From: a virus
Lineage: Duplodnaviria > Caudoviricetes
Virus record (IMG/VR): IMGVR_UViG_3300046820_001270
Location: 256,001-320,000 of that record
Length of the DNA stretch: 64,000 nt
Direction: 5' to 3' (one strand)
The position numbers and the translations under genes were made by a program. The notes under the pieces are model-generated. The model made no database searches and had not been told where the DNA came from. It saw nothing but the letters and a program-made list of their open reading frames with translations. Below, piece after piece: positions 9,844 to 27,521 of the stretch (its first letter is position 1; the number at the start of each line of letters is the position of its first letter).

Positions 9844-12753
9844 ATGGCAAGTAATAACAGAGTTTTCGTGTCTCCAGGTGTCTACACATCTGAACTCGAT
9901 TTAACATTTGTAGCACAGAGTGTAGGTGTTACAACATTAGGTTTAGCGGGTGAGACTTTAAAAGGTCCAGCTTTCGAACCTATTTTAATTTCTAATTTTG
10001 ACGACTTTAAATTGTATTTTGGTTCAACATCTCCTGAAAAATTTGGTGATGGTAATCCAAAATATGAATTAGGTTACGTAGCAAAATCGTATTTACAAGA
10101 ATCAAATCAATTGTTCGTAACAAGAGTATTAGGTCTTACAGGATATAAACCATATAAAACATTCGGTATAAAAACTATCGGTGGTGTTATTTTACAAGAA
10201 TATGTTAGTGGTTTTACCTTTGAGGTTAATACAGTGTCAAGTACTACTTTTGACAATACACCTCAAGTTTATGAAAAATTATTTGATAAACCGGCGTATG
10301 ATGGTAAAACAATTACCGAATATATTATTTCAAATTTTAGTGGTTTTACAAGTGCTGATGCCGGTAAATGGTTTGTTTTAGGTAAAATACCTGATGGAGA
10401 ATCATTACCAAGTGCCTCAAAAGAATTAGTTTCTCCATTAACTGGAAAATATAATTCTGAAAATTATAACACTAAAGAATGGTATAATACATTGTTTAAT
10501 TTATCAACACCAGGAGATACAACAACAGTAGATTCCGTTTATTCTTTTATATTTGAATTTATAAGTGAAAGTGGTTCTACTAGATTTGACGTTACAAGAT
10601 ATGAATATGATGCACAATTAGCCGAAGACTATCATAATGTGGTGGTTGCAGCTATTAGACCAAGAGGTGTTTATAGTGGTCAAACGTTAATTCATGAAGT
10701 TACTGGTAATACAAGTTTCACATTAACTGAAGTTTCAGGTAGTAATTTAAATTTCAATCCATTAGGTGAATTTACAATTAATGTAACAGGTTTCACAGAC
10801 GGAGCAAAAGAATTTACATGTACATTTGATACAACATCTTCAAAATATATTTCTAAAGTATTAGGAACAGAACCATTTGATAAAGATCGTGGTAATTATC
10901 CTGTTTATGTTCACGAAACATACCCTAATTACTTAATGGCAGCATATCAAAGAGGTTTAATTAGAGGTATCTCTATGGAAGCTTCTTATGAATTAGAAGG
11001 TAATAACTTCTTAGATTCTTGGGATACCACAATTTCACCAATGGTTGTATCTGAGGTTCGTGGTGGTAACGTTGCGGATTTATTCCAAGTTATCACAATA
11101 TCTGATGGAGAAGCTGCAAACTTCCAAGTTAAAGTTAATATTCAAAATATTAATTTAGAAACAATGGAATTTGATTTAGTAGTTCGTGATTTTAACGATA
11201 CTGATGATAATCAAGTTGCTTTAGAGAAATATTCAAGATGTTCAATGAATCCTGATATGCCAGGTTATGTGGCTAAGAAGATTGGTACATCTGATGGTGA
11301 ATATGCGTTAGTATCTAAGAGAATTATGTTAATGATGGCGGACGGTGCACCTGTAGATGCTGTACCTGCAGGATTTAAAGGTTTTGCGAATAACGAAGCT
11401 TTTGGATCTGATAACGATACTTTTGGTAATATTATCTACAAAACAAGATATAACGACGCGGGTGACGTTGAAACATATGACGTATCAGGTGCTCCGAATA
11501 TTGAATCAGGAGATAAAGTAAGAAAAGTAATGTTAGGTTTATCAAGTACATCTGGATTTGACCAAGATTTATTGAAATTTAAAGGTGCAAGTGGTACAAC
11601 TGAAACATTTGGTTTTCACTTGTCAACAAATGCTTCAACAATCCTTGATACAAACGGAAAACAAATTTTCCAAACTACATCATACGATTTAGAAGGTCAA
11701 ACAGAAGAAGACACAAACAAATTAACAAATATTAACTATCGTAAGTTCTCATTCGCAGTTTACGGTGGTAGAGACGGTTGGGATATCTATAGAACAACAA
11801 GAACAAATACAGACGCTTATATCTTTGGTAAAACAATCTATAAGTCAGGTCATACAGTAAACGGTGGTGTGTTTAGTTCAAATGTAGGTAATTCTGATTA
11901 TTATGCTTACTTACAGGCTATCAAAACATATGAAAACCCTGAGGCAATTGATATTAACGTATTTGCGACCCCTGGTATTAACTTCCAAGAACATAGTTCA
12001 TTAGTTAACCAAGCAATTGACATGATCGAATCTGATAGAGCGGATTCATTATATATTATGAACTCACCTAATATCACAGGTGCTACCGCAACTGATGAAA
12101 TAGTGTCTTCTTTAGATAATGCTTCAATAGATTCTAACTACTCAGCAACATATTGGCCTTGGATCCAAGTAAGAGATACAGATAACGCAACTCAATTATA
12201 TATCCCACCAACAGGTGAGGTAGTTAAGAACATTGCCTTAACTGACAATGTGTCTTATCCTTGGTTCGCAGTTGCGGGTTATAGTAGAGGTTTAGTAAAT
12301 GCGATTAAAGCGACTAAGAAATTGACTTTAGACGATAGAGATGTATTATATAAGAACAGAATTAACCCAATTGCAACATTCTCTGATACAGGTACCATTA
12401 TTTGGGGTAATAAAACATTACAAGTTAGAGAATCGGCTTTAGATAGAATCAACGTAAGAAGATTGTTATTAAGAGCAAGAAAGTTAATTTCGGCAGTTTC
12501 TGTGAGATTATTGTTTGAACAAAACGACGAACAAGTAAGAAACGAATTCTTAAGATTGGTAAATCCTATCTTGGATGCAATTAAGAAAGAAAGAGGTTTA
12601 TACGATTTCCGTGTAACAGTATCTAACGATCCTGAGGATATTGACGCAAACACAATGAGAGGTAAGATCTACATCAAACCAACTCGTTCTCTTGAATTCA
12701 TTGACGTAGAGTTCGTGATTACTCCAACAGGAGCTTCATTTGAAAATATCTAA
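9844..12753 (+). CDS. Contractile tail sheath protein (T4 gp18-like), 969 aa
   Basis: N-terminal SPGVYTSELD; C-terminal YWPW, PWFAVAG, NRINPI, WGNKT, RINVRRL, LFEQND. Confidence 0.95.
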   Translation: MASNNRVFVSPGVYTSELDLTFVAQSVGVTTLGLAGETLKGPAFEPILISNFDDFKLYFGSTSPEKFGDGNPKYELGYVAKSYLQESNQLFVTRVLGLTGYKPYKTFGIKTIGGVILQEYVSGFTFEVNTVSSTTFDNTPQVYEKLFDKPAYDGKTITEYIISNFSGFTSADAGKWFVLGKIPDGESLPSASKELVSPLTGKYNSENYNTKEWYNTLFNLSTPGDTTTVDSVYSFIFEFISESGSTRFDVTRYEYDAQLAEDYHNVVVAAIRPRGVYSGQTLIHEVTGNTSFTLTEVSGSNLNFNPLGEFTINVTGFTDGAKEFTCTFDTTSSKYISKVLGTEPFDKDRGNYPVYVHETYPNYLMAAYQRGLIRGISMEASYELEGNNFLDSWDTTISPMVVSEVRGGNVADLFQVITISDGEAANFQVKVNIQNINLETMEFDLVVRDFNDTDDNQVALEKYSRCSMNPDMPGYVAKKIGTSDGEYALVSKRIMLMMADGAPVDAVPAGFKGFANNEAFGSDNDTFGNIIYKTRYNDAGDVETYDVSGAPNIESGDKVRKVMLGLSSTSGFDQDLLKFKGASGTTETFGFHLSTNASTILDTNGKQIFQTTSYDLEGQTEEDTNKLTNINYRKFSFAVYGGRDGWDIYRTTRTNTDAYIFGKTIYKSGHTVNGGVFSSNVGNSDYYAYLQAIKTYENPEAIDINVFATPGINFQEHSSLVNQAIDMIESDRADSLYIMNSPNITGATATDEIVSSLDNASIDSNYSATYWPWIQVRDTDNATQLYIPPTGEVVKNIALTDNVSYPWFAVAGYSRGLVNAIKATKKLTLDDRDVLYKNRINPIATFSDTGTIIWGNKTLQVRESALDRINVRRLLLRARKLISAVSVRLLFEQNDEQVRNEFLRLVNPILDAIKKERGLYDFRVTVSNDPEDIDANTMRGKIYIKPTRSLEFIDVEFVITPTGASFENI

Positions 12754-12777
12754 TCTAAAAGGAGATATAAAAAGAAG

Positions 12778-12806
12778 AAGGGTATCAGAAATGGTACCCT
12801 TTTTTT
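12778..12806 (+). terminator. Rho-independent terminator after the sheath gene
   Basis: Stem aagggtatc / ggtaccctt (one G-U pair), 6-nt loop, followed by a T run. Confidence 0.75.
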
Positions 12807-12814
12807 ATGTGGAA

Positions 12815-12830
12815 TGCTCCACGTGGAACG
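12815..12830. other. parS-like palindrome TGCTCCACGTGGAACG
   Basis: 14/16 match to the chromosomal parS variant TGTTCCACGTGGAACA, with a perfect 10-bp core TCCACGTGGA. Intergenic. Confidence 0.5.
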
Positions 12831-12866
12831 TTTTATATAAAGAAAAAATAATTATACTTTACCCAG

Positions 12867-12893
12867 AATACTAGAACTAGATATTCTAGTATT
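12867..12893. repeat. 10-bp perfect inverted repeat in an AT-rich spacer
   Basis: aatactagaa (12867-12876) and ttctagtatt (12884-12893), 7-nt loop. Confidence 0.8.
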
Positions 12894-13082
12894 TATTAAG
12901 TATATATTATTTATTAAAGTAGAGTATTAAACTGGAACTATATACTGGGGCCTGTAAAAAACTACGAAAAATAATTGACATAAACAACCTTTTTGAGATA
13001 ATTAATTCAAAATAAAATTATTTTCCTTTTGGATATATTTATTAGAAAGTAAATAACTAACAAAATTTAACAAACACACAAT

Positions 13083-13571
13083 ATGGCCGATTTATTAATG
13101 AAAATGCCGACACCTTACGAACCAAAAAGGGTCAACCGATTTATCGTAAGATTTAACTCATCTTTGGGTATAAACGAATGGTACATATCTGCAGCTTCTA
13201 GACCAAGTGCTAAAATCAACTCAGTTGCAATTCCTTTCTTGAACACTTCAACATATGTTGCAGGTAGATTTGAATGGAACGAAATTAAAGTGACTTTTAG
13301 AGATCCAATTGGTCCTTCAGCATCACAAGCACTTATGGAATGGTTCCGTTTACATGCTGAATCAGTTACAGGTCGTATGGGATATGCTGCAGGTTATAAG
13401 AAAGATGTAGAATTGGAGATGTTAGATCCGACAGGAGTTGTGGTTGAAAAATGGTTATTAGAAAACTGTTTCTTAACTGACTTAAACTTTGGTGAATTAG
13501 ATTACAACAGAGATGAATTAGCTAATATCACATGTTCTTTGAGAATGGATAGATGTATTTTGATATACTAA
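13083..13571 (+). CDS. Tail tube protein (T4 gp19-like)
   Basis: 162 aa directly after the sheath gene; EPKRVNRF, GRFEWNEIKVTFRD, YKKDVELEMLDPTGVVVEKW, L-R-M-D-R-C. Confidence 0.92.
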   Translation: MADLLMKMPTPYEPKRVNRFIVRFNSSLGINEWYISAASRPSAKINSVAIPFLNTSTYVAGRFEWNEIKVTFRDPIGPSASQALMEWFRLHAESVTGRMGYAAGYKKDVELEMLDPTGVVVEKWLLENCFLTDLNFGELDYNRDELANITCSLRMDRCILIY

Positions 13572-13592
13572 TATTACAATTTTTCATATACG

Positions 13593-13630
13593 AAAACTGA
13601 TAGTTCAAAAGATTATCGGTTTTTCTTTTT
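13593..13630 (+). terminator. Rho-independent terminator after the tube gene
   Basis: Stem aaaactgatagt / attatcggtttt, loop tcaaaag, followed by a T-rich tail. Confidence 0.65.
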
Positions 13631-13674
13631 TAAAAACTTTACTTTAGACTAGTTATTAAGTAAATTATAGTATT

Positions 13675-14424
13675 ATGGAAGAAATGAGAATAGACCCAAC
13701 AATTGCGTATGATGTGGTAGAATTACCTAGTAGAGGTATTCATTATACAAACAAAAAAAAATCAGTAAGAGTGGCTTATTTAACAGCTTCAGATGAGAAT
13801 ATACTTTCATCTCCTAGTTTTTTAAATACAAATACTGTAATTCCTGAACTTTTAAGAAGAAAAATATTGGATAAAGATTTTTCTATTGAGGAACTTGTTG
13901 AAGAAGACAAACAGGCAATTTTAATATTTTTAAGAAACACATCTTTTGGATCTGAATATATGGTAACAACATATGATCCAAAAACAGATAAAGAATTTGA
14001 AGTAAAAGTTAATTTAGAAAGTTTAAAACTAAAAGATTTTAATTTAAATGAAGATTCTAATGGTGAGTATTCATATTATTTAGATAAAAGTAAAGTTGAT
14101 GTTACATTTAAATTTTTAACCAAAAAACAAGAAGATGAAATTGAAAAAATAAAAGAAAGTTGGAATGGTAATGGTGTGGCTCCTGTTATAACAAAACAAC
14201 TTGAAATGATGATAAAATCATTTGGTGGTGTAAGAGACGCTTTAAAAATTAGAAGTTTTATTGAATTAATGCCAATTAAAGATTCCCAAGATTTTAGAAA
14301 ATTTATACAAGATAATAAACCAGGGTTAGATTTAACCCAACAAGTAACAACCCCATCAGGAGATACAATCCAAGTTAATATTGGGTTTGGGGTAGAATTT
14401 TTTCGTCCTTTCTACGGATTATAA
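13675..14424 (+). CDS. Tail assembly chaperone / baseplate hub assembly protein (T4 gp26-like), short 'G' product
   Basis: VELPSRG...YLTASDENIL motif, located between tube and tape-measure genes, ends GVEFFRPFYGL. Confidence 0.75.
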   Translation: MEEMRIDPTIAYDVVELPSRGIHYTNKKKSVRVAYLTASDENILSSPSFLNTNTVIPELLRRKILDKDFSIEELVEEDKQAILIFLRNTSFGSEYMVTTYDPKTDKEFEVKVNLESLKLKDFNLNEDSNGEYSYYLDKSKVDVTFKFLTKKQEDEIEKIKESWNGNGVAPVITKQLEMMIKSFGGVRDALKIRSFIELMPIKDSQDFRKFIQDNKPGLDLTQQVTTPSGDTIQVNIGFGVEFFRPFYGL

Positions 14425-14554
14425 AAAAATACAATTAGATGAAATACTCTTTTTAGTTAAAAGAGGGTTTAGTTATGGTGATATCCTTACTATGCCAGTT
14501 TATTTACGAAGATATTATGTAGGGTATCTAATTGAATTAGAAAATGGTACATAG
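14396..14554 (+). CDS. Start-less 'T' extension of the tail chaperone, reached by programmed frameshift
   Basis: The +1 frame is open for 52 codons (NFFVLSTDYKKIQLDEILFLVKRGFSYGDILTMPVYLRRYYVGYLIELENGT) with no ATG/GTG/TTG before codon 33. It overlaps TTT_TTT_CGT_C at 14398-14407. Confidence 0.7.
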   Translation, partial: NFFVLSTDYKKIQLDEILFLVKRGFSYGDILTMPVYLRRYYVGYLIELENGT

Positions 14555-14568
14555 TTGTATTTATAGGT

Positions 14569-16452
14569 ATGCCTAATTATTCAAAAATTTTAAAAGAATC
14601 AAGAAACGCTCAAGAAGCCATTGATAAATGGAAAAGTCAAAACAATAGAGTAATTGACGGAGCAACTGAAGCGTCTTTTAGAAATGAACCGGCATCATCA
14701 TTTAAAGGAGGTAGTACTATGAGTAGTGGTGATGAAGAAGTATCGGGTACAATATCTAGTCCGTATGATGTTTTAAAAGCAGGTAGAGGTAGATCGACCA
14801 TATCTGAAATGAGTGGTCAATATAAAGTAAAAACAGATGACTTAGGTGGATTTAATGTTGAAATAGAAATATTAAAACAACTTAAAAGAGAATCTGATTT
14901 ACATACTGAGATTAATGAAAAAATGGGTATTACTGGAGAATTGTCCAGAGTATTCAGAGATACCTTATTAGATACGGTACCCAAGGCTGCATCACTTAAC
15001 TATGATATGGGGAATATCGCAGAAATGGTAACCCAATTATCGGCAAATACAGGTAAATTTAATTTAATCGCGGAAAGAACATTAGAACGTTCATTTGAAA
15101 CTGCTAGAGCATTCGGTTTAACATTACCTCAACTTGCGGATGCGATGAGTGAATTTGAAAAAGTTGGTTATGGTGCCTCAGATACACTTAAAAAAATTAA
15201 TAAAGCGGGAATTGATACACTTAGTCTTGGTTTAAATTCAAAAAAACTTACACAAGAATTAAAAGATAATATTGGTAAATTAAATGAATATGGATTCGCA
15301 AATGGAGTTGCTGGTTTAAATAGAATGGTACAAAAGGCAACAGAATTTAGAATGAATATAGCCGAATCATTCAAATTGGCGGATAAAGTAATGAATCCCG
15401 AAAGTGCAATTGAATTGACTGCAAATATGCAAATGTTAGGTGGTGCAATTGGTGACCTTAATGATCCACTTAAATTAATGTATATGGCAACTAATAATGT
15501 TGAAGGTTTACAAGACGCATTACATGGGGCGGCCGCTGGTTTAGCAACATACAATAAAGAACAAGGAAAATTTGAAATAGTAGGTGCTAATCTAAGAAGA
15601 GCAAAAGAAATGGCATCTCAATTAGGTATATCATACCAAGAATTTGCGAAAGGTGCGGTCGCGGCAAACGAAAGAATTGCTGCAGGTGAAGCGTTAGCCT
15701 CCAAAGGATTTAATATTAAAGATGACGAAAAAGAATTCTTAACCAACTTAGCACAAATGAAAGATGGTGAAATGCAAATCGTTATCCCAAAATCATTAGA
15801 AGATAGTTTAGGAAAAGAATTAGGAGGAGAAAAAGAAATTAAACTAAGTCAATTAACTAAAGATCAAATAGATAAGTTAGTACAATATCAAGAACAGTTA
15901 GAGAACAAAACCGCAGAAGAATTGGCTAGAGATATGTTCAATTCATCAAAGAACATAGAATTATATACACAACAAACGACATTAGCATTAACAAAATATG
16001 GTAAAGATATAACTTTAGGTAAAAATGAAAGACCTGACGGTCCTTTAGAGAGTTTATCTAGATTACAAGCTAAAGGAGGTAAACTTAAGGCGGATTTAAT
16101 ATCGAATAATCCTGAATTTTTAAAAAATCTTTTTGAAGAAACTTTTGGACAGGCTTTTCAAGGGACAAATGGTTTAATAAATGCGGTTAAAATGGGATTT
16201 AGTGGACTTACAATTGCGGGAGAATCTCTAGTTCAAAAATTAGAACAGTATATAAAAAATACTCCTAACGAGAAATATGATAAAAAGGTGAAAGAAGAAG
16301 AGAAATGGAATGAAAGTTCTAAAGTTAAAGATCGAAGAGTTACATTTAATAATAATCTTAAAATCACACATGTAGGATTAGGAGACGGTACGATAAGTGA
16401 TATCACCAAAACAGAAAAAGGGTATTTAACCGGTTATGATGATTGGGGATAA
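14569..16452 (+). CDS. Tape measure protein
   Basis: 627 aa, predicted helical and Ala/Gly/Leu/Lys-rich, in the canonical position after tube and chaperone genes. Confidence 0.75.
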   Translation: MPNYSKILKESRNAQEAIDKWKSQNNRVIDGATEASFRNEPASSFKGGSTMSSGDEEVSGTISSPYDVLKAGRGRSTISEMSGQYKVKTDDLGGFNVEIEILKQLKRESDLHTEINEKMGITGELSRVFRDTLLDTVPKAASLNYDMGNIAEMVTQLSANTGKFNLIAERTLERSFETARAFGLTLPQLADAMSEFEKVGYGASDTLKKINKAGIDTLSLGLNSKKLTQELKDNIGKLNEYGFANGVAGLNRMVQKATEFRMNIAESFKLADKVMNPESAIELTANMQMLGGAIGDLNDPLKLMYMATNNVEGLQDALHGAAAGLATYNKEQGKFEIVGANLRRAKEMASQLGISYQEFAKGAVAANERIAAGEALASKGFNIKDDEKEFLTNLAQMKDGEMQIVIPKSLEDSLGKELGGEKEIKLSQLTKDQIDKLVQYQEQLENKTAEELARDMFNSSKNIELYTQQTTLALTKYGKDITLGKNERPDGPLESLSRLQAKGGKLKADLISNNPEFLKNLFEETFGQAFQGTNGLINAVKMGFSGLTIAGESLVQKLEQYIKNTPNEKYDKKVKEEEKWNESSKVKDRRVTFNNNLKITHVGLGDGTISDITKTEKGYLTGYDDWG

Positions 16453-16502
16453 TATTACAATAAAAAAACCATATATTACCTATTTATAGTTAAAAGAATA
16501 TA

Positions 16503-19500
16503 ATGCCAAAATACCTAGATTTTGATGCTACTAAGGATTTTAGGGATAAAATGTTAAATAGGACATTAAATCCTGTTTATGGAAAAAGTCCGTCCCCTAA
16601 AACTTTTACAAGTTCTAACTATAGTATCCAAACTTTAGGAGATAGTCCAAATTTATTATTACCTCAAGTTGATGGTAATAGGTCAAATGATCTATTAATA
16701 CCACAAAAATCAAATGTTTTTAAACCAAATGAATATTTTGTTAAAGACAGTATTAATGATATACCTAGAAGAGCAAATTTAAATTTATATCCATATTTTA
16801 TCCAAAGTGACGATAATTTAATCGGTATAATGTTAACTAAAAACTACGATACCGAGTCTGAATTATTTAAATTTGCTGCAAATAATATAAGAACCAACCC
16901 ACAAGGTCCGGTTTTAGCGAGAATCAGTAAAAATCTTAATACCGCAATTAATGCAAAAAATAAAATAGGTGAGGCTTTAGGTGGTAATACAACTACATTG
17001 ATTAATATTATTAGAGGTAAACAACCTTTAATTGAGGGAAATGAAAGTATCACGGTATCAAGTAGTTTATTAGGTAAAGGATTTGATTTTTTACAGACAG
17101 TTGCAGGAACTCAATTACCTTTTAGTACAATACCAGGTGATTATTTAACAAATCCCCGTAATCCGATTAATATAAGACCGACTAATGTTTCTACAGGAAC
17201 AAAGGTTTGGCAAGATTTAACAGGGGTTTTAGGGTCAATAGTGGGTATTCAAAGAAGACCACTACCATCAAGAAAACCATCTGATATTTTGATTGAACAC
17301 ATGGGTGAATCATCAAAAAATAGATTATTTGATTTATTGAGTTTTTCTAAATACGCACCAAATTACACAACCACTGCGAGATCACAAATGTCCACCAATG
17401 TTGGTAGAATCCCAAGTCAATTTGCACAAGGAATTAAGAACGCATTAGGAATGGAGGCACCAAATAGTGGTGCATATATAGGTGATGATAGAGAAAATGA
17501 TGTAAAAAATGCCACCACAGATTTGTTTAGTGGAAGACCTGTAAGAAGTAGTTATTATCTTACATTAATGTTTGATAAAGTTGCTGCAGAATTATTTCAT
17601 AAAAATAGAGGTATTACTGAAAACGGACCAATTGGTGGTAATTTAACTTGGTTAAGTAAAAATGGAACAACAAAAGACATTAGTTTTCAATATATTAATG
17701 AAGACATATCGACAAAATATAATTTTAGAGAGGATTCTATTTTAAATATTACACAACAAATATTAGACTCAAAACCACAAAATGGTGGAGATGCTTTATC
17801 ACATATAGGTCACGTATTAGATCAAACAAGTAGATATTTTAAAGATGGTGATACATTAATTTCCAGAGGTTCAGGTGTACGTTATATGGATAACTCAGGT
17901 AAAGATATTGGTGTTGAATATGCTAGAGTATGGACAAAAGATAGACCTTATTTTACATATGGTGATACAATGCCATTATGGAAAGAAAGTGTAAAAAAAC
18001 CATATTATAATGGTGCAACAGGAGGTACAGGAGATACTACTAATAGTAAAAGTAATTTTTATAGAAGAACAGGTATTAGAAGATTTGATGGTAGTGTAAT
18101 GACAAATCCGTGGAATTTAAATATTGCACCAATGTCAGACGGAACTACAAATCCAGAATTTCCTGGATCATCTAATATAATTAAAAACCCAAAAGGGAAT
18201 GGATTTTACGCTAAAAAATATATGTTATCTATTGAAAATTTAGCATGGGCGGCGTCAACACTTCCGGGTTATACTGTAAATGATTTACCATTTTCAGAAA
18301 GAGGACCAAATGGAGGCCGTGTTATGTGGTTTCCACCATATGATTTGAAAGTGTCTGAACAAAATAGTGCAAAATGGGAACCAAATACATTTTTAGGTAG
18401 ACCAGAACCAATATATACATATCAAAATACAGAAAGAAATGGTAGCTTATCATTCAAAGTAATTGTCGATCACCCAAGTATATTAAATTTACTAATAAGA
18501 GAACATTTTAAATCTGTTAATGATGAAGATGTTGATAAATTTTTAAACGCATTTTTTGCAGGAGCAAAGGATATTGATTTTTATAGTTTAATCAGACAAT
18601 ATTCACATTTAGATTCGGACGATATAAAAATGATTCAAAATTATCTAAATGACGGTGGAAGTCCTTCAGATATAAAAAGACGTAAAACAGCAACATCATC
18701 ACCTACACAAGATAATCCAGGTGGAAGTGATAGTTTTGATGCAAATAAAGATAAGGTAAATGAAACATTAAATTTTTATTTTCTAAACGCCTTTCCTGAA
18801 GCCGGAGACGACTTATTTAAATCAAATATGTCATTTGATTTAGTAAGTAATGGTACAATTTTAGATACCAAAATTCAAGAAAAAAATAAACAATTATTAA
18901 GAGAGTCATTAAATAAAATTATAAACAGTACCGACACAAAAGATATTGAGGATAGAGAAAGTATTTTTAAAAGAAAAGATATTCCAAGTGATCAAACAGG
19001 TACCACAATAAATAAAAAAATAACAGAACTTGAAAATATTTTTACCGAATCAACCACATCAAATAGTAAACTAATAGATATATTAACAAAATTAAAGAAA
19101 GATTTAAAAGATGAAAATATTGAAGGAGATGTTGTTGTAAATGTTAGCTCATATACATCAAAGGCGGGAGAGGAAAATTTAAATTTTAACCTTTCATTTA
19201 GAAGATCACATTCTTTATTTTTATATCTTTTTAATAATATCAAAAAAGACGGTACTAATATAGATTTAAAAAAATGGACGTTTTCAAAATTAGAGTCTGA
19301 CGTACCGGCAAAAGGAAAAGAAAGATTTGTTATTGAAAAAGAATTTTCAATAAAAGAATTAGGTTATAATGGAGAAGGAAGTGTAATTTTCAGATCAAAC
19401 AATTTTGGTGCAGATAATAATTTACAATCAGGATATTGTAATACTACAAATTATAATGACATTTCTTTAACATATTATGCTCCGAGTTCATATGGGTGTA

Positions 19501-21296
19501 GATCTACAGAATTTATTATTGAGTATGCTAAATCTAAAAAAGAAGACAAAGCATCAAACGCCTCAGTAAAAAATTCATTAGGACCTACAGGTAATATACC
19601 AAGTAGTAATACAAAACCTCCAATAGATGTGATGAAAAGAATCATCATGAAGACTTTATCTGAACAGTATTACTTTAAAAAGTTGGAAGAGACTTCACCA
19701 ATGATTTACACATCATTAAAAGAAAAATTAAAATATTTTCATCCGGGTTTCCATTCAATGACACCTGAAGGATTAAACTCACGTTTAACATTTTTACAAC
19801 AATGTTTACGACCTGGTAATACAATACCGGTGAAAGGTTTATCAGACAATTCAGATATTAACGCAAGAAATACAACATTTGGACCACCACCTATTTGTGT
19901 TTTAAGAGTTGGAGATTTTTACAATTCAAAAGTTATTATAAAAGATCTTAATATACAATTTGAACAAAATGTATGGGATATGAACCCAGAAGGTATTGGT
20001 ATCCAACCAATGATTGCGGACGTAACAATGCAATTAAGTTTCTTAGGAGGACACGGTTTAGAAAAACCTGTAGAAAGATTACAGAATGCTTTGTCATCTA
20101 ATTTCTTTGCAAATACTGAAATGTATGATGAAAGATCTGAATCAACCAATACTAAAATGGGAGGTAAAGATAGTGAAGACTTTACAAGGGAATTTTTACA
20201 AAGTTTAAATGACACACTATTACCAATAACTGGTTTAAAAGATAGTAATGGAAAAGGATATACTGAAGGTCAATATATTGGTACAATTTCTCCTTCCGAT
20301 AAAACGATAGATTATACTACATTAATAAATGATGTATATAAAAGTGTGGAACCATATTTTACCACATACGAAAAAATGTACAATAGTTTAACAAAACAAT
20401 ATGGACATAAAATTGTGAATTTGATGGTTAATAAAACTGAAAGAACAAATAACAAATATGACATATATAGTTCTTCGGGAAATACAACACCAAATCAAGT
20501 TTTGTTATTTGGTAATTTTAAAGACACCTCACCTTTTTCAAAAACTATTGAGACATTAATTGTAAGATTTGAAGTATATCTAACACTCCAAAAAGAAAAC
20601 GAAAAGTACTCAGTTTTAAAATTATTAAAAATTGACGATGATATAACAGATGATCTTAAAGATTTTTATGAAGAAGGTCTTTATGATCATTTTAAGACAT
20701 TCTTTAAAGAAAAAGTTGGAGATTTTGCTTCATCTAAAATTGCAAAAGATTATGAAGATATAAGAAATAAATTAATTGTAAGTTTAGATAAATTAAATAC
20801 CGTTATTAAATATAATGCGGATTTTAAGATAGATAAAAATAAAATTTATAAATTAACAATTACAGGAGATACATCTGAAATGTATAGTGAATATAGTTCA
20901 TGTATGGATTTCATAAAAAGTAATGAACCTAAAATGTATAAAAAATTAGATACATCATTATCTAGTTCATTGGACGACGAAAAAATGAGGGATATTATCT
21001 ATACCGTTTTTTATAATGATTATACGAATGCGTTGGATAATATTGAAAATCAATTTGATACGGAAGATGAAGAAAGTTCTAAAATTGTAGATAAGATTAG
21101 AAGAAAATTAGGTAGAGATTTTTATGAAACTAAAGATATTAATATGGGATTTGGTAAGGTACCAACATTAAAAAATTCTAAAAAAGTGTCATTTGATTAC
21201 ACAGATGAAATATTAGATGAAAATGACGATATTAAAAAACTGTATTCTACACAATATAAACCATCGGACGATAAATTAAATTATTATAAAAAATGA
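16503..21296 (+). CDS. Large tube-initiator / baseplate protein (gp48/gp54-like domains) with an OmpA-C-like insertion
   Basis: Two tube-fold-like segments (WFPPYDLKVSE...LGRPEPIYTYQNTERNGSLSF and PPICVLRVGDFY...IIKDLNIQFE...QPMIADVTMQLSFLG). Between them lies VSSYTS...NFNLSFRRSHS. Confidence 0.6.
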   Translation: MPKYLDFDATKDFRDKMLNRTLNPVYGKSPSPKTFTSSNYSIQTLGDSPNLLLPQVDGNRSNDLLIPQKSNVFKPNEYFVKDSINDIPRRANLNLYPYFIQSDDNLIGIMLTKNYDTESELFKFAANNIRTNPQGPVLARISKNLNTAINAKNKIGEALGGNTTTLINIIRGKQPLIEGNESITVSSSLLGKGFDFLQTVAGTQLPFSTIPGDYLTNPRNPINIRPTNVSTGTKVWQDLTGVLGSIVGIQRRPLPSRKPSDILIEHMGESSKNRLFDLLSFSKYAPNYTTTARSQMSTNVGRIPSQFAQGIKNALGMEAPNSGAYIGDDRENDVKNATTDLFSGRPVRSSYYLTLMFDKVAAELFHKNRGITENGPIGGNLTWLSKNGTTKDISFQYINEDISTKYNFREDSILNITQQILDSKPQNGGDALSHIGHVLDQTSRYFKDGDTLISRGSGVRYMDNSGKDIGVEYARVWTKDRPYFTYGDTMPLWKESVKKPYYNGATGGTGDTTNSKSNFYRRTGIRRFDGSVMTNPWNLNIAPMSDGTTNPEFPGSSNIIKNPKGNGFYAKKYMLSIENLAWAASTLPGYTVNDLPFSERGPNGGRVMWFPPYDLKVSEQNSAKWEPNTFLGRPEPIYTYQNTERNGSLSFKVIVDHPSILNLLIREHFKSVNDEDVDKFLNAFFAGAKDIDFYSLIRQYSHLDSDDIKMIQNYLNDGGSPSDIKRRKTATSSPTQDNPGGSDSFDANKDKVNETLNFYFLNAFPEAGDDLFKSNMSFDLVSNGTILDTKIQEKNKQLLRESLNKIINSTDTKDIEDRESIFKRKDIPSDQTGTTINKKITELENIFTESTTSNSKLIDILTKLKKDLKDENIEGDVVVNVSSYTSKAGEENLNFNLSFRRSHSLFLYLFNNIKKDGTNIDLKKWTFSKLESDVPAKGKERFVIEKEFSIKELGYNGEGSVIFRSNNFGADNNLQSGYCNTTNYNDISLTYYAPSSYGCRSTEFIIEYAKSKKEDKASNASVKNSLGPTGNIPSSNTKPPIDVMKRIIMKTLSEQYYFKKLEETSPMIYTSLKEKLKYFHPGFHSMTPEGLNSRLTFLQQCLRPGNTIPVKGLSDNSDINARNTTFGPPPICVLRVGDFYNSKVIIKDLNIQFEQNVWDMNPEGIGIQPMIADVTMQLSFLGGHGLEKPVERLQNALSSNFFANTEMYDERSESTNTKMGGKDSEDFTREFLQSLNDTLLPITGLKDSNGKGYTEGQYIGTISPSDKTIDYTTLINDVYKSVEPYFTTYEKMYNSLTKQYGHKIVNLMVNKTERTNNKYDIYSSSGNTTPNQVLLFGNFKDTSPFSKTIETLIVRFEVYLTLQKENEKYSVLKLLKIDDDITDDLKDFYEEGLYDHFKTFFKEKVGDFASSKIAKDYEDIRNKLIVSLDKLNTVIKYNADFKIDKNKIYKLTITGDTSEMYSEYSSCMDFIKSNEPKMYKKLDTSLSSSLDDEKMRDIIYTVFYNDYTNALDNIENQFDTEDEESSKIVDKIRRKLGRDFYETKDINMGFGKVPTLKNSKKVSFDYTDEILDENDDIKKLYSTQYKPSDDKLNYYKK

Positions 21297-21619
21297 GTAG
21301 GGATTATTTCGACAGATATCAATTTTTCATAAATGATGGTAAATTTAGAATTGTACCGGGTATTGAAATGCCTATAAAAGGAACAGACAAATATATACAA
21401 TATAAAAAAGGTAGAGATAGATTGGATAAAATATCACAAGAATATTACGGTTCACCCACCTTTGGTTGGATTATTATGATGGCGAACCCGACTGCCGGTC
21501 TTTTGGAGTTTGACATTCCCGATAATTTCTTTTTAAGGATACCATATCCATTAATTAGCTCTTTACAAGATTATAAAAGAGGTGTAGAATTGTATAATCT
21601 ATATTATGGAGAACAATAA
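21293..21619 (+). CDS. LysM-like baseplate protein (T4 gp53 / P2 gpX-like)
   Basis: DRLDKISQEYYGSPTFGWIIMMANP...FDIP...LRIP. Confidence 0.85.
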   Translation: MSRDYFDRYQFFINDGKFRIVPGIEMPIKGTDKYIQYKKGRDRLDKISQEYYGSPTFGWIIMMANPTAGLLEFDIPDNFFLRIPYPLISSLQDYKRGVELYNLYYGEQ

Positions 21620-24600
21620 AATTACAAATACGGAAGATATACATGTTAAGGTCGATCAGAATAATTTAATTTATATTGACCCAAACTCAACTATTGATAG
21701 TCAAGGAAATATATCACCTAGAAATATAAAGGCAGAGAATTTAGTAATGTATGTTAATTTAGAGGCGGACATTATACCCAGATCTATTTTAGCGGCGGAT
21801 AATACAACAAACACATTAACTAGTATTGCAAAAGGAACATTAAATTTTTTAAAAAATAATGATGGAGGTGATTATGATACTTCTTGGACTAACTCTTTTT
21901 TAAACTCAGAAGAGAAAAAAAATGGTTCAGGAACACTCACAGGTGAATTTTTTCAATCAGATAAATCGGGACAAACATTTGGTATTGACAATATTACAAT
22001 TAATATAAAAGGATTTAATTCAATTCCTACAATTAATATTACATTTTTAGATGTGAGAGGTAAAACTTTATTTGAATCACCTGAAAATTCCCCATATAAG
22101 GCATTTTTTCACATCCCATGGCCAATATTTTATTTAACGGTTAAAGGATTTTATGGTAAAGCAATTAGATATAGATTACATATGGTTAAGTTTACAAGTA
22201 AATTTAATGAGTCAAATGGTAATTTTGAAGTTAATACATCTTTTGTTGGATCAACATATGCGTACTTATCTGACATTCCATTACAGGGAATTTTAAATGC
22301 ACCATATCTTTTTCCATATGAATCATCAAAAGTAACAGAAACAAATACAGGTACAAATAGAGAAAAGGAAACTGTAAAAAAATCAACTAAAGGATATGAA
22401 ATATTAAAAACAGTTTATAATGAATATAAACTTAAAGGACTTATAAAAGAAGATTTTCCGGTTAAAACATTAAAAGAGGTAATGACAATATCTAAAACAT
22501 TAGATACGTTATTAGAAAAACAAATTTTTGATCAAGTTGTAGATATGAGAATATTCGCGGGACTAAAACAATTCCAAGAAGATATTGATAAATTTGAGGA
22601 AGCAGTTATCGGATGGGGAAAATTAAATCTTGAATCTGAACCGGAACCATCTTTAACTCAATCAACAACAGACCCCAATAATCCAAAATTATTTTTTTTA
22701 GTTAAATCAAACCCAAGAACCGATAGGTCAAAAGGTATTGATGGGCCAGATGAAGATGGAACGTTTGAACATTTACTTAAATTTTATGGTGATAAAATTA
22801 GAGAAAGTCAATTATTAAGTGATGTTATTCAAAATCAAAAAATTAAACAAAACCCATTATTAAATAAAACCGGATCAAATTTTTCAACTAAATCTTTAGG
22901 TATCAGTAAAGTTGGTAATATGGAACTTTACATTGACGATAAAAATCACCCAAATAAATTTATTGGAATAGCAATTCAAAAACTATTAGATGATGTAAGA
23001 GAAATTCGTACAAAATTCGAACAACAAAGAGAAAAATTACAACGACAAGTTGAAATTAAAATGAATGAAATTGTTAGAGATAAAACTAAAGGTTTTGGTT
23101 TTGAACCTACAATTAGAAATATTTTTGCGGTTATTTTGGCAAATGCGGAGGTTTTAATACGTTTAATGAAAGATGTACATAAAAAGGCATTTGATCAAGC
23201 TGAAACTAGAAAAATGGTAGTTTCACGTTTTTCTAAAGAAAGTATGGGAGATTCAATTTACCCTTGGCCCGAATTAAAGGCCACAGTTAAAGGTAAAGAA
23301 AATACTATTATATATCCAGGAGATCCAGATTGGCAAGCATATTTAGGTTCTGAAAATGCACAAAGATGGCCTGAGGTTGCTTTTCTAGAAACATATATTG
23401 GTGTAACAACAAATAAAGTAGACCCTTTAGCGGAAAAAGAAGCATCCATTAATAAACTATCAAATACCATTCAAAATGATAGTGATATTAAAAAAATAAA
23501 AAAGATAAGTACCGCAAATGAAGTGGTTAATATATTACCATATGTTAATAAAAGTCCAGATTCTTTTATTTATGAATTATATGAAAGATCATTTCACTAT
23601 AGTGTAATTGAATCCTTTAATAAAACGGCAACATGGGAAAAATTAGCAGATTTAGAATTTGGTAATATACAAGAATCTGTTGAAGATGAAAACGGGTTAA
23701 GAAAATTACTAATACAAAATATAAAAGATAAAACAACATTAATATCTCAATTAGAAAAATTATCTCCTTTTGAAAAATATTCATACTATAAAGATAGTTT
23801 ACCTACTACGGATTATTTAAAATCTTTTTATGAACAATCATTTATTATTGAACAATACGTTTCATCTAATAGTGTTGACGATAAAAAGTTATACCAATTT
23901 TTAGATGAAGAATTACAAAATTTCACACCAGAAACTTATAGAAAAAACATTTATCCATATTCTTCAAATGTTTATTTAAATTATATTAGTACGGGTGTAA
24001 CATCTATAACCGATTCTTTATTGAATTGTAGAAATTTCTTAAGTGTTGACACAACACAAGGTTTAGTTTCTGGAGAAGTTAATCCATTATTTTGGTTAAA
24101 AAATGGAGTCACATCTAATTTGTTTTCTAAAAAATTTACATTAACTAATACTAAAGTTAATATTTTAAATACACCATTTTTTCATAGACAATTATTTTCG
24201 GATTTTAACACTATTGGAAGTTCAAGTGGAAAATACGCAGGTTCTGCTTATTTGTTATTAAATTCATTGGCCTTTACTGATTTAGATGAAATTAAAATTG
24301 GAACAACTAAAACAGATTCAAAACCATATACGTTTTTAACATCATCTTTATTTAAAGAAATAGGTTCTTCTCAGTATGTACCTTACCATTTAATTTTAAA
24401 ATGGGGGTCAATATACCACAGACACAAAAAATTCATTAAAGAAGGTGTAGATATTATTGGTGACGTATATGATGGTAATAGTTTAGTAAAAGAAGGTGCA
24501 GTTAAAACAGGTTCAACCGAAACATTAATTGGATTTCAAACAAATAAGTTAGACGGACGAACATTTTTTGATAATGGAAATGATTTAGTTTTTGAACCCG

Positions 24601-27521
24601 AAAATGGTACATACGTAAGTTACGAAGATCAAATTTTTGAACTTGACCCGATATTTGATCCTGGAATTACTTTTGTAGTTACGGGACATACCGACGTAGG
24701 AATACACCCTTATTATGATGATATATTTTATAATATCGTAAATGGAGAAAATTATTTTGATTTTGTAACTGGAAATACTACCGATTATTATAATAAAATA
24801 ACAGGAGGAACATTAAATTTAAAAAATGATGTTTTAGCATATAGTGGAGGTACATTATATTATTGGACACAATATGTTGATGATAGTAAAGTAAACAATA
24901 AAAAGAATACATTTACATTATTACCATCTACAGGAGATAATCTTTTTAAAGGTAAAAAACAATCATTAACAAATGTTAATGAAAATCCATTTTCAAACAA
25001 TTCGTTTGAAATAGAAGAACAAAATAATTTTAGAATAGTTTGGGACGATGAATTAATCAGTAGTAATTTTAGTGGGCAAACATTTGCATCACCTATAGAA
25101 CACACAACTACAATTTCGGGAAAATACGGAATTCAAAATATAACCGATAATTATAAAAAAGTTATGGATTTAATTGCTACATTTAATCCAACAATTTTAG
25201 ATGAATTTGAAAAATATTTTTTATTGTTTGCATCTGAAAAACTTAACTTAAGTGTTTCTGATAAACCTTTTAATGGAGTAGTATTAGATAAATTTCAAGA
25301 TTTATTAAAAGAAATAGTTACAGTACAAAAAGATGTAAAAAATTCTACATCTAACCAAATTTCTATTTTAAAAGAAAAACAAAAAACTAAATTAGAAGAT
25401 ATTAGTAAATTAATTTTATCAAATGATAATTTGATAAAAATTACAATAGGTAATCCTAAAGAATTTGATCCACATACGTTAATTGGTTTTATAGGTGTAG
25501 ATAAAAAAAATACATTTAAATACAACACATATAAAGGTGAATTTGATGGATCTCAGAGTGATGAAAATGTTGATTTAATAAATCTATATTTAGGACCTGA
25601 ACCCGAATACGGGGATTATCAGGATTTCTTTATAGATAATAACATAGAATTTAACGAGGAAAACGTACAAATTTTCAGACCATTAATTTATATATATGCC
25701 GGTTATAAAAATAGTAGTTTTTATAACACAACACCAAACTTTAAACAATATCTTAATGAGTCTATCTTTACCAAATCGGGAGGAGTTGATGAAAGATTAA
25801 ATACATTTTTACTTACATTAATACCTAAGTTTCAAAAAGAATTTAAAATTCAAGAAGACCCAACTAAAATTACATTTTTTGATGGATATAATAATAAACC
25901 ATTAAAAGTTGAATTGTATAATTTCTTTAAATCCATGAACGATAAATGGATTGCCGGTAATTCAATTGGTCAAAGATCGTTGTTAGAAGAATTTTTATTT
26001 TTAGATAGGGCCAATAAAGATATTGGAAATGATTATTATTTTGATTTAACAAGGTTAACCAATATGGGAGACCCTAAAAATTCAAAACAAAGTTTATATG
26101 GTGCTTTATCAATTTTACTACAAGGAACGGGATTTGATATGAGGGCATTACCGGCTTATATTAATTTTTATGGAAATACTTTTTCTAAAAATCCTAAATT
26201 AGTACCATCAAAAAGAATTGCACAAAATCTATTTGGAACATTTTTAGATGTCGATTATCAAGAGTCTCTACCAAAAATTGTAATTCAATATGTTGGTAAG
26301 AATTCGACAAGACCTGAGATGGAGAAAAAAGGTAAATTTAAATTTAGTGACGATAGTTTTAATGTTGGTAATGTTAATAATAATCCACTTATGGTTACTT
26401 TACCTAAAGTATTTAAAACAGGCGATTTAACAAAGTCTAACAAAGTAGTTGCATTTGAAGTAAGTTTTGGTGACCAAAACCAAAGTATTTTTAAAGGAAT
26501 ACAATTAGATCAAGCTTCAATTAAAAATACAAGTGAATCTTTTTATGTATTAGAAAACTTAGCAAGATCCGAATCGGGTTCGTCATCACATAATGTTGAT
26601 ATCGGTTTATATGATTATTATAGACAGGCCTCTTATACTTGTGATGTCACATGTATGGGAAATGTTATGATACAACCAACAATGTATTTTTACCTTAAAA
26701 ACGTACCAATGTTTAAGGGAACGTATTGGATTAGTGAGGTAGCACATTCAATTAAAAGTGGATCGATAACGACTACATTCAAAGGATCAAGAATACCGTA
26801 TACGGCTCTTCCTGATTTAAAAGATTCATTTATGTCAAGTTATCGTACATTATTTGATAAATTACAACAAAAGGCAGTTAATAGAGTTAATGGTGCGGAT
26901 AAGGTTACAGAAACAAGTAAGACCATAACAAATCAAAACGGTGAAAAATTCACATTTGATATGGGAGATTTAAAAAAATCACCTTCTGGTGAAAAACTTG
27001 TCGAGGGAGATGCTTCATTTACACCTCAAGCGGGTATTCCATTTAACGGATATGCAGATTTTAGATATATTACTAAAGTCAAATATCCTAATGAAAATAG
27101 TCTTTGGTTAAGAGCAATTGTGGCTAGAATGGGTGAGAAGAAATATCCAATAAAAGATGAAGTTGTCATGTCAGTAGTTTCATCAAATAGTAAAATCATA
27201 ACAAGTCCTAAATTTACGTGGAAACAAGCGTCTGAATTTACAAACGATTATTATTTTTATGCAACAAAATTCTTATTTGATAAAGTACCCGCATCAAAAG
27301 TTACAACGTTAACCTCAACGTTTTTTAATCCAGCAAATAATGTAACAATTATAGTTCCACCAAAATATGAATTAAATGATAAAACCACAACTCCTATTGA
27401 ATTCTCAGGTCCAATTGATATAATAAGAGATGAGGAACCATATGGTATGGTATTATCTTCTAAGTTAATGTTAGACTTAGGTTTACAAGATGGTGATATT
27501 GTTTACTTCAATGTTGGATAA
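21606..27521 (+). CDS. Very large baseplate hub protein (gp27/gpD-like)
   Basis: N-terminal FGIDNITINI...INITFLDVRG. C-terminal YTCDVTCMGNVMIQPTMYFYL...FKGTYWISEVAHSI...TTFKGSR typical of hub OB/beta-barrel ends. Follows the LysM gene. Confidence 0.65.
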   Translation: MENNKITNTEDIHVKVDQNNLIYIDPNSTIDSQGNISPRNIKAENLVMYVNLEADIIPRSILAADNTTNTLTSIAKGTLNFLKNNDGGDYDTSWTNSFLNSEEKKNGSGTLTGEFFQSDKSGQTFGIDNITINIKGFNSIPTINITFLDVRGKTLFESPENSPYKAFFHIPWPIFYLTVKGFYGKAIRYRLHMVKFTSKFNESNGNFEVNTSFVGSTYAYLSDIPLQGILNAPYLFPYESSKVTETNTGTNREKETVKKSTKGYEILKTVYNEYKLKGLIKEDFPVKTLKEVMTISKTLDTLLEKQIFDQVVDMRIFAGLKQFQEDIDKFEEAVIGWGKLNLESEPEPSLTQSTTDPNNPKLFFLVKSNPRTDRSKGIDGPDEDGTFEHLLKFYGDKIRESQLLSDVIQNQKIKQNPLLNKTGSNFSTKSLGISKVGNMELYIDDKNHPNKFIGIAIQKLLDDVREIRTKFEQQREKLQRQVEIKMNEIVRDKTKGFGFEPTIRNIFAVILANAEVLIRLMKDVHKKAFDQAETRKMVVSRFSKESMGDSIYPWPELKATVKGKENTIIYPGDPDWQAYLGSENAQRWPEVAFLETYIGVTTNKVDPLAEKEASINKLSNTIQNDSDIKKIKKISTANEVVNILPYVNKSPDSFIYELYERSFHYSVIESFNKTATWEKLADLEFGNIQESVEDENGLRKLLIQNIKDKTTLISQLEKLSPFEKYSYYKDSLPTTDYLKSFYEQSFIIEQYVSSNSVDDKKLYQFLDEELQNFTPETYRKNIYPYSSNVYLNYISTGVTSITDSLLNCRNFLSVDTTQGLVSGEVNPLFWLKNGVTSNLFSKKFTLTNTKVNILNTPFFHRQLFSDFNTIGSSSGKYAGSAYLLLNSLAFTDLDEIKIGTTKTDSKPYTFLTSSLFKEIGSSQYVPYHLILKWGSIYHRHKKFIKEGVDIIGDVYDGNSLVKEGAVKTGSTETLIGFQTNKLDGRTFFDNGNDLVFEPENGTYVSYEDQIFELDPIFDPGITFVVTGHTDVGIHPYYDDIFYNIVNGENYFDFVTGNTTDYYNKITGGTLNLKNDVLAYSGGTLYYWTQYVDDSKVNNKKNTFTLLPSTGDNLFKGKKQSLTNVNENPFSNNSFEIEEQNNFRIVWDDELISSNFSGQTFASPIEHTTTISGKYGIQNITDNYKKVMDLIATFNPTILDEFEKYFLLFASEKLNLSVSDKPFNGVVLDKFQDLLKEIVTVQKDVKNSTSNQISILKEKQKTKLEDISKLILSNDNLIKITIGNPKEFDPHTLIGFIGVDKKNTFKYNTYKGEFDGSQSDENVDLINLYLGPEPEYGDYQDFFIDNNIEFNEENVQIFRPLIYIYAGYKNSSFYNTTPNFKQYLNESIFTKSGGVDERLNTFLLTLIPKFQKEFKIQEDPTKITFFDGYNNKPLKVELYNFFKSMNDKWIAGNSIGQRSLLEEFLFLDRANKDIGNDYYFDLTRLTNMGDPKNSKQSLYGALSILLQGTGFDMRALPAYINFYGNTFSKNPKLVPSKRIAQNLFGTFLDVDYQESLPKIVIQYVGKNSTRPEMEKKGKFKFSDDSFNVGNVNNNPLMVTLPKVFKTGDLTKSNKVVAFEVSFGDQNQSIFKGIQLDQASIKNTSESFYVLENLARSESGSSSHNVDIGLYDYYRQASYTCDVTCMGNVMIQPTMYFYLKNVPMFKGTYWISEVAHSIKSGSITTTFKGSRIPYTALPDLKDSFMSSYRTLFDKLQQKAVNRVNGADKVTETSKTITNQNGEKFTFDMGDLKKSPSGEKLVEGDASFTPQAGIPFNGYADFRYITKVKYPNENSLWLRAIVARMGEKKYPIKDEVVMSVVSSNSKIITSPKFTWKQASEFTNDYYFYATKFLFDKVPASKVTTLTSTFFNPANNVTIIVPPKYELNDKTTTPIEFSGPIDIIRDEEPYGMVLSSKLMLDLGLQDGDIVYFNVG

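Follow-up and report, generated by a model that had tools for sequence, protein, structure and literature searches.

Tail assembly chaperones of the lambda type are made as a short and a long protein, gpG and gpGT, by a conserved frameshift (Levin 1993; Xu, Hendrix, Duda 2004; reviewed in PMC5009743). We analysed a 64,000-nucleotide stretch of a tailed virus (IMG/VR record IMGVR_UViG_3300046820_001270, positions 256,001 to 320,000; hereafter the window), in which a gp26-like chaperone gene, here called open reading frame 1 (ORF1), is overlapped at its 3' end by a second frame, ORF2. With a probability of about 80%, and judging from sequence comparisons, a programmed +1 ribosomal frameshift on UUU_Y (Y, pyrimidine), of the lambda G/GT type, yields a short and a long form of this PF12322 chaperone. 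The locus resembles lambda G/GT in lying between the tube gene and the presumed tape-measure gene, in having a short normal product and a longer one reached, on this reading, by a shift near the 3' end, in the startless second ORF, and in an arrangement that is kept despite diverged sequences. It differs in that the proposed shift is +1 and not -1, on UUU_Y rather than an X_XXY_YYZ heptamer, and in ORF1 being a PF12322 member of roughly double the gpG size; no similarity in sequence was found to either gpG or gpT. The system would be a directional variant of G/GT: in place of the classic -1 heptamer, the conserved site is UUU_Y for +1.

UUU_CGN is the +1 shift motif of amalgaviruses. In influenza A, PA-X is made by a +1 shift at UCC_UUU_CGU, with no known stimulators (Firth 2012, cited in PMC5009743). 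The initial annotation of the window had described its signal as PA-X-like, and the P- and A-site codons do match: UUU in the P site is followed by CGU or CGC in the closest relatives of the window (the window clade, defined below) and in the two Firmicute phages HSE3 and GXN1, re-pairing on UUC gives tRNA-Phe an additional G-C pair, and no stimulatory structure is apparent. The UCC, however, is absent, as the site is preceded by GAR or UUY and the E-site codon is TTT (TTC in variants). Translation here is bacterial, and 68 of 86 representative relatives have TGG, TAC or TTC after the UUU, so that CGN is not required and CGY is only one flavour of a family rule, UUU_Y.

In E. coli, UUU followed by a pyrimidine is reportedly a +1 shift-prone context, a finding ascribed to Schwartz and Curran (1997, cited in PMC3789692). 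UUU-UGG was proposed as the shift site for the Yersinia YopN-TyeA hybrid, and mutating it did not abolish the hybrid (PMC3789692). UUU before a pyrimidine is invariant at the locus described here, and UUU_UGG is its commonest form among the relatives; the bacterial examples differ in being error sites (UUU-pyrimidine) or an unconfirmed site (YopN-TyeA). The CUU_U found in Flavobacterium phage immuto and in one further locus (L157) gives the re-pairing of the prfB site, CUU_UGA; the prfB shift differs in being autoregulatory, dependent on a stop codon and served by a Shine-Dalgarno sequence 3 nt upstream, whereas at the present locus a sense codon occupies the A site and no comparable sequence was seen. 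Tail chaperone frameshifting itself is textbook knowledge, and a +1 case, 'very likely +1', has already been proposed for the tail chaperone of the haloarchaeal myovirus HSTV-2, a myovirus gene as here but in an archaeal host (PMC5009743). What is new is that the shift at the Phe-Phe codons would be +1, together with the UUU_Y rule and the control offered by the paralogs described below; we found no description, in papers or in records, of a frameshift in PF12322 genes. To our knowledge, few programmed +1 shifts in bacteria and phages combine a sense A-site codon with the lack of an obvious stimulator.

The overlapping reading frame and its conservation

The elements of the locus are the following.

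13675 to 14424, plus strand: ORF1, the short form, a gp26-like chaperone of 249 amino acids ending in GVEFFRPFYGL and a stop (PF12322; phrog_150).
14398 to 14409, plus strand: the proposed shift site, TTT TTT CGT CCT (census of the junction in 162 loci and 86 representatives).
14405 to 14554, plus strand: ORF2 in the +1 frame, the proposed 49-residue C-terminal extension of the long form, VLSTDYKK...ELENGT and a stop (homologous +1 ORF in related loci; substitution rates; structure model).

The last codons of ORF1 are GTA (14392), GAA, TTT (14398), TTT (14401), CGT (14404), CCT, TTC, TAC, GGA, TTA and TAA (14422). The +1 frame is closed by TAG at 14393-14395, open from 14396 and closed again by TAG at 14552-14554, a span of 52 codons, and the -1 frame meets a stop about 11 codons beyond the T-run. 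When TTTC is read as a single step, a 292-residue fusion with the junction GVEFFVLSTDY results, and the junction peptide predicted by the +1 reading is ...GVEFFVLSTDYK. The initial annotation had described this ending with its overlapping +1 ORF, the early closure of the -1 frame and the 292-residue fusion, and all three were recovered from the letters of the window. Its description of the +1 frame as open for 52 codons without a start was correct as to openness but not as to the start: one internal ATG lies at 14492 (codon 33), the sole ATG, GTG or TTG of the ORF2 frame and downstream of most of its conserved part.

In order to follow the arrangement among relatives, IMG/VR was scanned at two depths. 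A protein-guided scan gave 80 loci with 69-87% identity, the window clade, and a profile scan gave 80 further loci with 43-70% identity to the type of Microcystis phage Mel-JY01 and phage immuto; 86 representatives were below 90% identity. A homologous ORF2 in the +1 frame at an F-[FL]-x-P motif was found in 162/162 loci, which cover both identity groups together with Mel-JY01, immuto and LR756508; many of these loci are close relatives, and the counts overstate the number of independent events. Window-clade loci that reach the site have an ORF1 of 249 codons, the junction GAR TTT TTT CGY CCT and ORF2 in the +1 frame, with CGY after the UUU in 80/80 loci. In those of the wider group ORF2 likewise lies in the +1 frame, and the site is mostly TTT TTT TGG CCT; the arrangement is common to the cultured phages Mel-JY01 and immuto and the uncultured LR756508. 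The best 120 protein matches are each exactly 249 amino acids long, and contigs from three independent lake studies span the T-run with no indel in it, matching contigs being most numerous at 14377-14413. Since all 162 related loci examined keep it, the frame arrangement is far beyond chance; it is neither an error nor a coincidence. A check on relatives for TTT-TTT-CGN and the overlapping ORF, as suggested in the initial annotation, bore out the ORF throughout and confined CGN to one part of the family.

An open +1 frame at the same motif is also present in Bacillus phages HSE3 and SP-15, Streptococcus phage GXN1, Listeria phage LIS04 and Rhodothermus phage RM378. Among these five, homology to ORF2 is supported only for HSE3 (95%). 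RM378 does not have the gene order with the tube gene upstream, and its +1 ORF scored 0.9% against the ORF2 profile, which leaves homology unproven. A joined coding sequence is annotated in none of the records examined, whether of these five phages or of Mel-JY01, immuto and LR756508; in every one of the named phages present annotation would miss the long product.

The ratio of nonsynonymous to synonymous substitution rates (dN/dS) in the part of ORF2 that lies 3' of the ORF1 stop is 0.11 in the window clade, compared with 0.17 for ORF1, and 0.29 for both ORFs in the wider group. Within the overlap, the wider group has variable frame-0 residues past the conserved Pro (pairwise identity 0.14-0.17) and frame-0 tails of differing length, and the +1 peptide, FF[GTVAS]L..[DE]Y, is conserved. 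In 78/162 loci the open +1 frame holds no ATG, GTG or TTG before it reaches the site, and the first downstream start in that frame is at least 18 codons in for 128/162. These patterns indicate that ORF2 is under purifying selection and that it is a coding sequence whose conservation begins at the junction. Pfam DUF6760 gave sub-threshold matches in nine of 41 ORF2 sequences (best E 1.6e-5; singly 16-21 bits, for a cut-off of 27) and no match to the ORF2 of the window; no mention of DUF6760 was found in the papers searched.

Nucleotides of the proposed shift site and tandem paralogs

Among the 86 representatives, the Phe codon at position 2 of the motif is TTT in 83/83 cases, compared with 713 TTT and 224 TTC elsewhere in ORF1. 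The base that follows is always a pyrimidine, in TGG (57), CGY (18), TAC (9) or TTC (2). The remaining three representatives, in which position 2 is not TTT, have TTT CTT TGG or TTT CTA TTC, which permit re-pairing from UUU_C to UUC or from CUU_U to UUU. The residues encoded after position 2 (W, R, Y, F) are largely dissimilar, and what they share lies in their codons. Where this residue is Arg its codon is always CGY, and Arg codon usage in the window is 76% AGA and 0.7% CGC. At both the second TTT and CCT, the third codon position has an identity of 1.0.

Avoidance is seen elsewhere in the window. Among its 19,446 codons the shift site holds the only in-frame TTT-CGY, and there are five instances of TTC-CGT (p 5e-4 with the site excluded). 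In the long ORFs of the window the TTT fraction before codons that start with a pyrimidine is 0.67, versus 0.84 otherwise (Fisher p 3e-8), and the depletion is strongest before C; this fits a shift-prone UUU_Y, and a general context bias may contribute. Taken together, the codon counts argue that the nucleotides of the shift site are under selection. The RNA around the site folds no better than shuffled sequences, and no Shine-Dalgarno-like element was found at short spacing, the only G-run (14389-14392) ending 8 nucleotides before the P-site codon.

Listeria phage LIS04 is an exception to the pyrimidine rule of the 86 representatives. Its site (L169:3700-3729) reads GAG TTT TTT AGT, with a purine after the second TTT, and only the first TTT (UUU_U) permits +1 re-pairing.

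According to the mechanism we propose, most ribosomes would read ORF1 to its TAA and release the 249-residue short form. On some ribosomes, peptidyl-tRNA-Phe would be held on UUU (14401-14403) with the A site waiting on the minor codon CGU; the tRNA would re-pair with UUC (14402-14404), and decoding would resume at GUC (14405). The outcome would be the 292-residue long form, in which the extra 49 residues add a small helical module to the chaperone body, and both forms would act jointly on the tape measure during tail assembly, by analogy with lambda gpG and gpGT. The sequence comparisons establish the layout of the locus, its conservation, selection on ORF2 and on the bases of the shift site, and the natural occurrence of in-frame long forms; the ribosomal nature, the +1 direction and the efficiency of the shift, as well as the function of the extension, are what we infer here. 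A +1 slip of peptidyl-tRNA-Phe from UUU to UUY is compatible with every variant, and the hundreds of natural variants (UUU_CGY, UUU_UGG, UUU_UAC, CUU_U and lineages with loss) would make a ready mutational series for forward slipping of tRNA-Phe.

The strongest argument that the T-run serves recoding comes from lineages in which the long form has a gene of its own. We compared an ORF2 profile with 1.84 billion representative proteins and obtained 1347 clusters, nearly all of them called as short, separate ORFs of 56-134 amino acids. In-frame PF12322-ORF2 proteins of 308-313 amino acids account for four of the best 150 matches. Three loci (L166:603-2356, L167:4139-5927 and L168:2890-4678) carry a tandem PF12322 pair, with a short paralog immediately 5' of the in-frame long form. 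The short paralogs end in NFFWPGLNE or SFFWPSLGEIN and retain the FFWP residues, encoded by AAC TTC TTT TGG CCC (with the +1 frame closed after three codons) or by AGT TTC TTC TGG CCA, and they have no +1 extension. The peptide motif is thus kept and the T-run has decayed where the long form is encoded separately, which suggests that the T-run would otherwise serve recoding and that both forms would be needed. The initial annotation had proposed a tail chaperone, encoded between the tube gene and the tape-measure gene, the long form of which arises when tRNA-Phe slips forward by one base from TTT to TTC. The conserved, selected and mostly start-less +1 ORF, the invariant TTT_Y context and the natural in-frame fusions support this proposal.

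Alternative readings of the junction

Of the other explanations, the one that survives best, although we consider it unlikely, is that ORF2 is translated separately, from a non-canonical start or by reinitiation past the ORF1 stop, and that no fusion is made. Gene callers do list ORF2 as a separate ORF of 56-134 amino acids in most metagenomes, a small ORF is annotated at its position in HSE3 and SP-15, and some upstream start is present in the open +1 frame of 84/162 loci. The window, however, has no ATG, GTG or TTG before codon 33 of ORF2, and the +1 peptide is conserved from the FF motif onward, within ORF1. Natural in-frame fusions exist, and it is precisely the lineages with a separate long paralog that have lost the nucleotides of the slip site. 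The modelled fusion also folds as a single unit. AlphaFold2, run on the fusion with a 70-row alignment, gave a predicted local distance difference test score (pLDDT) of 93.6 and a predicted template modelling score of 0.88, with a confident junction and extension. The extension was predicted as three helices, at 247-262, 267-271 and 275-291, packed on the ORF1 body with pLDDT 84-97; four of the 70 alignment rows link both parts, and the predicted packing leans on those rows. The model suggests that the fusion folds as one compact protein. A complex prediction of the tail tube protein with the ORF2 module scored 0.00, which says nothing either way.

Still less probable is a -2 shift, in which tRNA-Phe would move back two bases on the T-run and give ...EFFFVL..., one residue longer. 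Such a slip reaches the same frame, and in the window (GAA TTT TTT CGT), as at the T7 sites of most relatives, the tRNA would pair again without a mismatch, TTT to TTT. No -2 re-pairing is available, however, in TTC TTT CGY (four window-clade loci of the L026 type, HSE3 and GXN1), in TTT CTT TGG (immuto and L157) or in TTT CTA TTC (LR756508). All of these keep the +1 ORF, and each permits +1 re-pairing, from UUU_C to UUC or from CUU_U to UUU. The invariant pyrimidine after UUU is a requirement of a +1 slip. Where the initial annotation had offered +1 or -2, the variants with interrupted runs thus favour the former and disfavour the latter.

Slippage of RNA polymerase on the T-run, with one U deleted in some transcripts, we rate lower again. 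Homopolymers are present, a T6 run in the window and T7 runs in the majority of relatives, but T-runs of 6-7 are short for productive polymerase slippage, and loci with interrupted runs (TTCTTTC, TTTCTTT and TTTCTATTC) keep the arrangement. One metatranscriptome contig of a relative also spans the site without an indel, which is weak evidence against slippage in the transcript. An indel introduced by sequencing or assembly as the cause of the frame break, or a pseudogene, can be practically dismissed, because, error-prone as homopolymer runs are, the same frame relation recurs across many samples, in 162 loci, as well as in cultured phages and in the indel-free contigs of three lake studies, and all of the best 120 protein matches have 249 residues.

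Tail module and relation to T4 gp26 and gp51

The genes around ORF1 are the following.

9844 to 12753, plus strand: tail sheath gene, 969 amino acids (Pfam Phage_sheath_1 and Phage_sheath_1C; phrog_23 tail sheath, E 3.5e-61).
13083 to 13571, plus strand: tail tube gene, 162 amino acids (phrog_4542 tail tube, E 1e-27; Pfam Phage_T4_gp19 at 27.9 bits, slightly below the cut-off of 28.2).
14569 to 16452, plus strand: putative tape measure gene, 627 amino acids (by position only).

ORF1 matches Pfam PF12322, T4_baseplate, the gp26/gp51 family, at 29.1 bits, above the gathering cut-off of 24.5. It also matches phrog_150, baseplate hub; with the fusion in place of ORF1 alone, the end of this match moves from 233 to 266 of 282 profile positions and the score rises from 39 to 45 bits. 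The tail tube gene lies directly 5' of ORF1, and the same order was found in 71 representative loci. The 627-residue gene had no Pfam or PHROG match and no similarity to the tape measure of phage immuto; the gene at this position is annotated as tape measure in immuto, HSE3 and LIS04, and by position we regard the gene of the window as a putative tape measure. The best structural matches of the core domain are solved tail assembly chaperones (HK97 2ob9 and YqbN 3klu), at modest Z. A Foldseek search of the PDB returned nothing significant for the whole fusion or the core domain, and a sequence search of the PDB with the ORF1 profile found nothing. Gene order, the proposed two-product design and the structure model suggest a chaperone role like that of G/GT.

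Two further phages have a PF12322 gene that ends at the FF motif and is followed by a long open frame in the -1 direction. In Pseudomonas phage PA5oct (L173:3777-4010) the codons are AGT TTT TTC AGA, and in Ralstonia phage RsoM2USA (L172:3708-3980) they are GTT TTT TTT TCC; both sites are classic -1 slippery runs. Alignment of the ORF2 profile with these -1 extensions by hhalign gave 2% for PA5oct and 11% (E 0.003) for RsoM2USA, and homology is unproven.

The T4 gp26/gp51 family has long been termed 'baseplate hub' proteins of unclear role, and the present reading would place it among the tail assembly chaperones that require a short and a long form. The end of ORF1 aligns with the end of T4 gp26, ...KEFFELL, which has the same EFF motif and no extension. 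Against PF12322, gp26 scores 215.6 bits and its paralog gp51 (L084:4480-5229) 177.5 bits over residues 1-201, and gp51 carries a 48-residue C-terminal tail past the domain. As a pair, gp26 and gp51 resemble the lineages with short and long paralogs. T4 differs in that no overlapping ORF follows gene 26, the stop of which is overlapped by the ATG of gene 25, and in that the two genes are not beside the tube gene. These features are consistent with T4 encoding the short and the long form as two genes. Homology of the gp51 tail to ORF2 itself is unsupported, at 0.3% for whole gp51 and 0.4% for the tail in hhalign; the tail alignment pairs KSNYSLNSISKMIPAERGF opposite KRGFSYGDILTMPVYLRRY, without statistical support, and an alignment of long forms gave no useful match to gp51.

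A broader proposal, for which we see about even chances, is that the Phe-Phe codon pair ending PF12322 chaperone genes is an ancient recoding site, the direction of which switched between lineages, and that some lineages, probably including that of T4 genes 26 and 51, use gene duplication instead. If so, UUU_Y would be a structure-free and deeply conserved bacterial +1 signal in a very abundant group of freshwater and marine phages, and the G/GT rule would extend to T4, until now its exception.

The DNA of the window is from a freshwater metagenome, with near-identical sequence in other lake studies. A megablast search of positions 12000-17000 against phage records gave no match, and no tRNA genes were found in the window. 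Relatives sit on contigs of up to 335-347 kb, which makes a giant phage a plausible source. Two very large ORFs, of 1597 and 1971 amino acids, follow 3' of the presumed tape measure gene, at 16503-21296 and 21606-27521. Between them lies an ORF of 108 amino acids (21293-21619) with weak matches to gp53-like baseplate wedge proteins (phrog_7145, E 8e-7), and the ORFs from 16503 to 27521 probably form the baseplate module.
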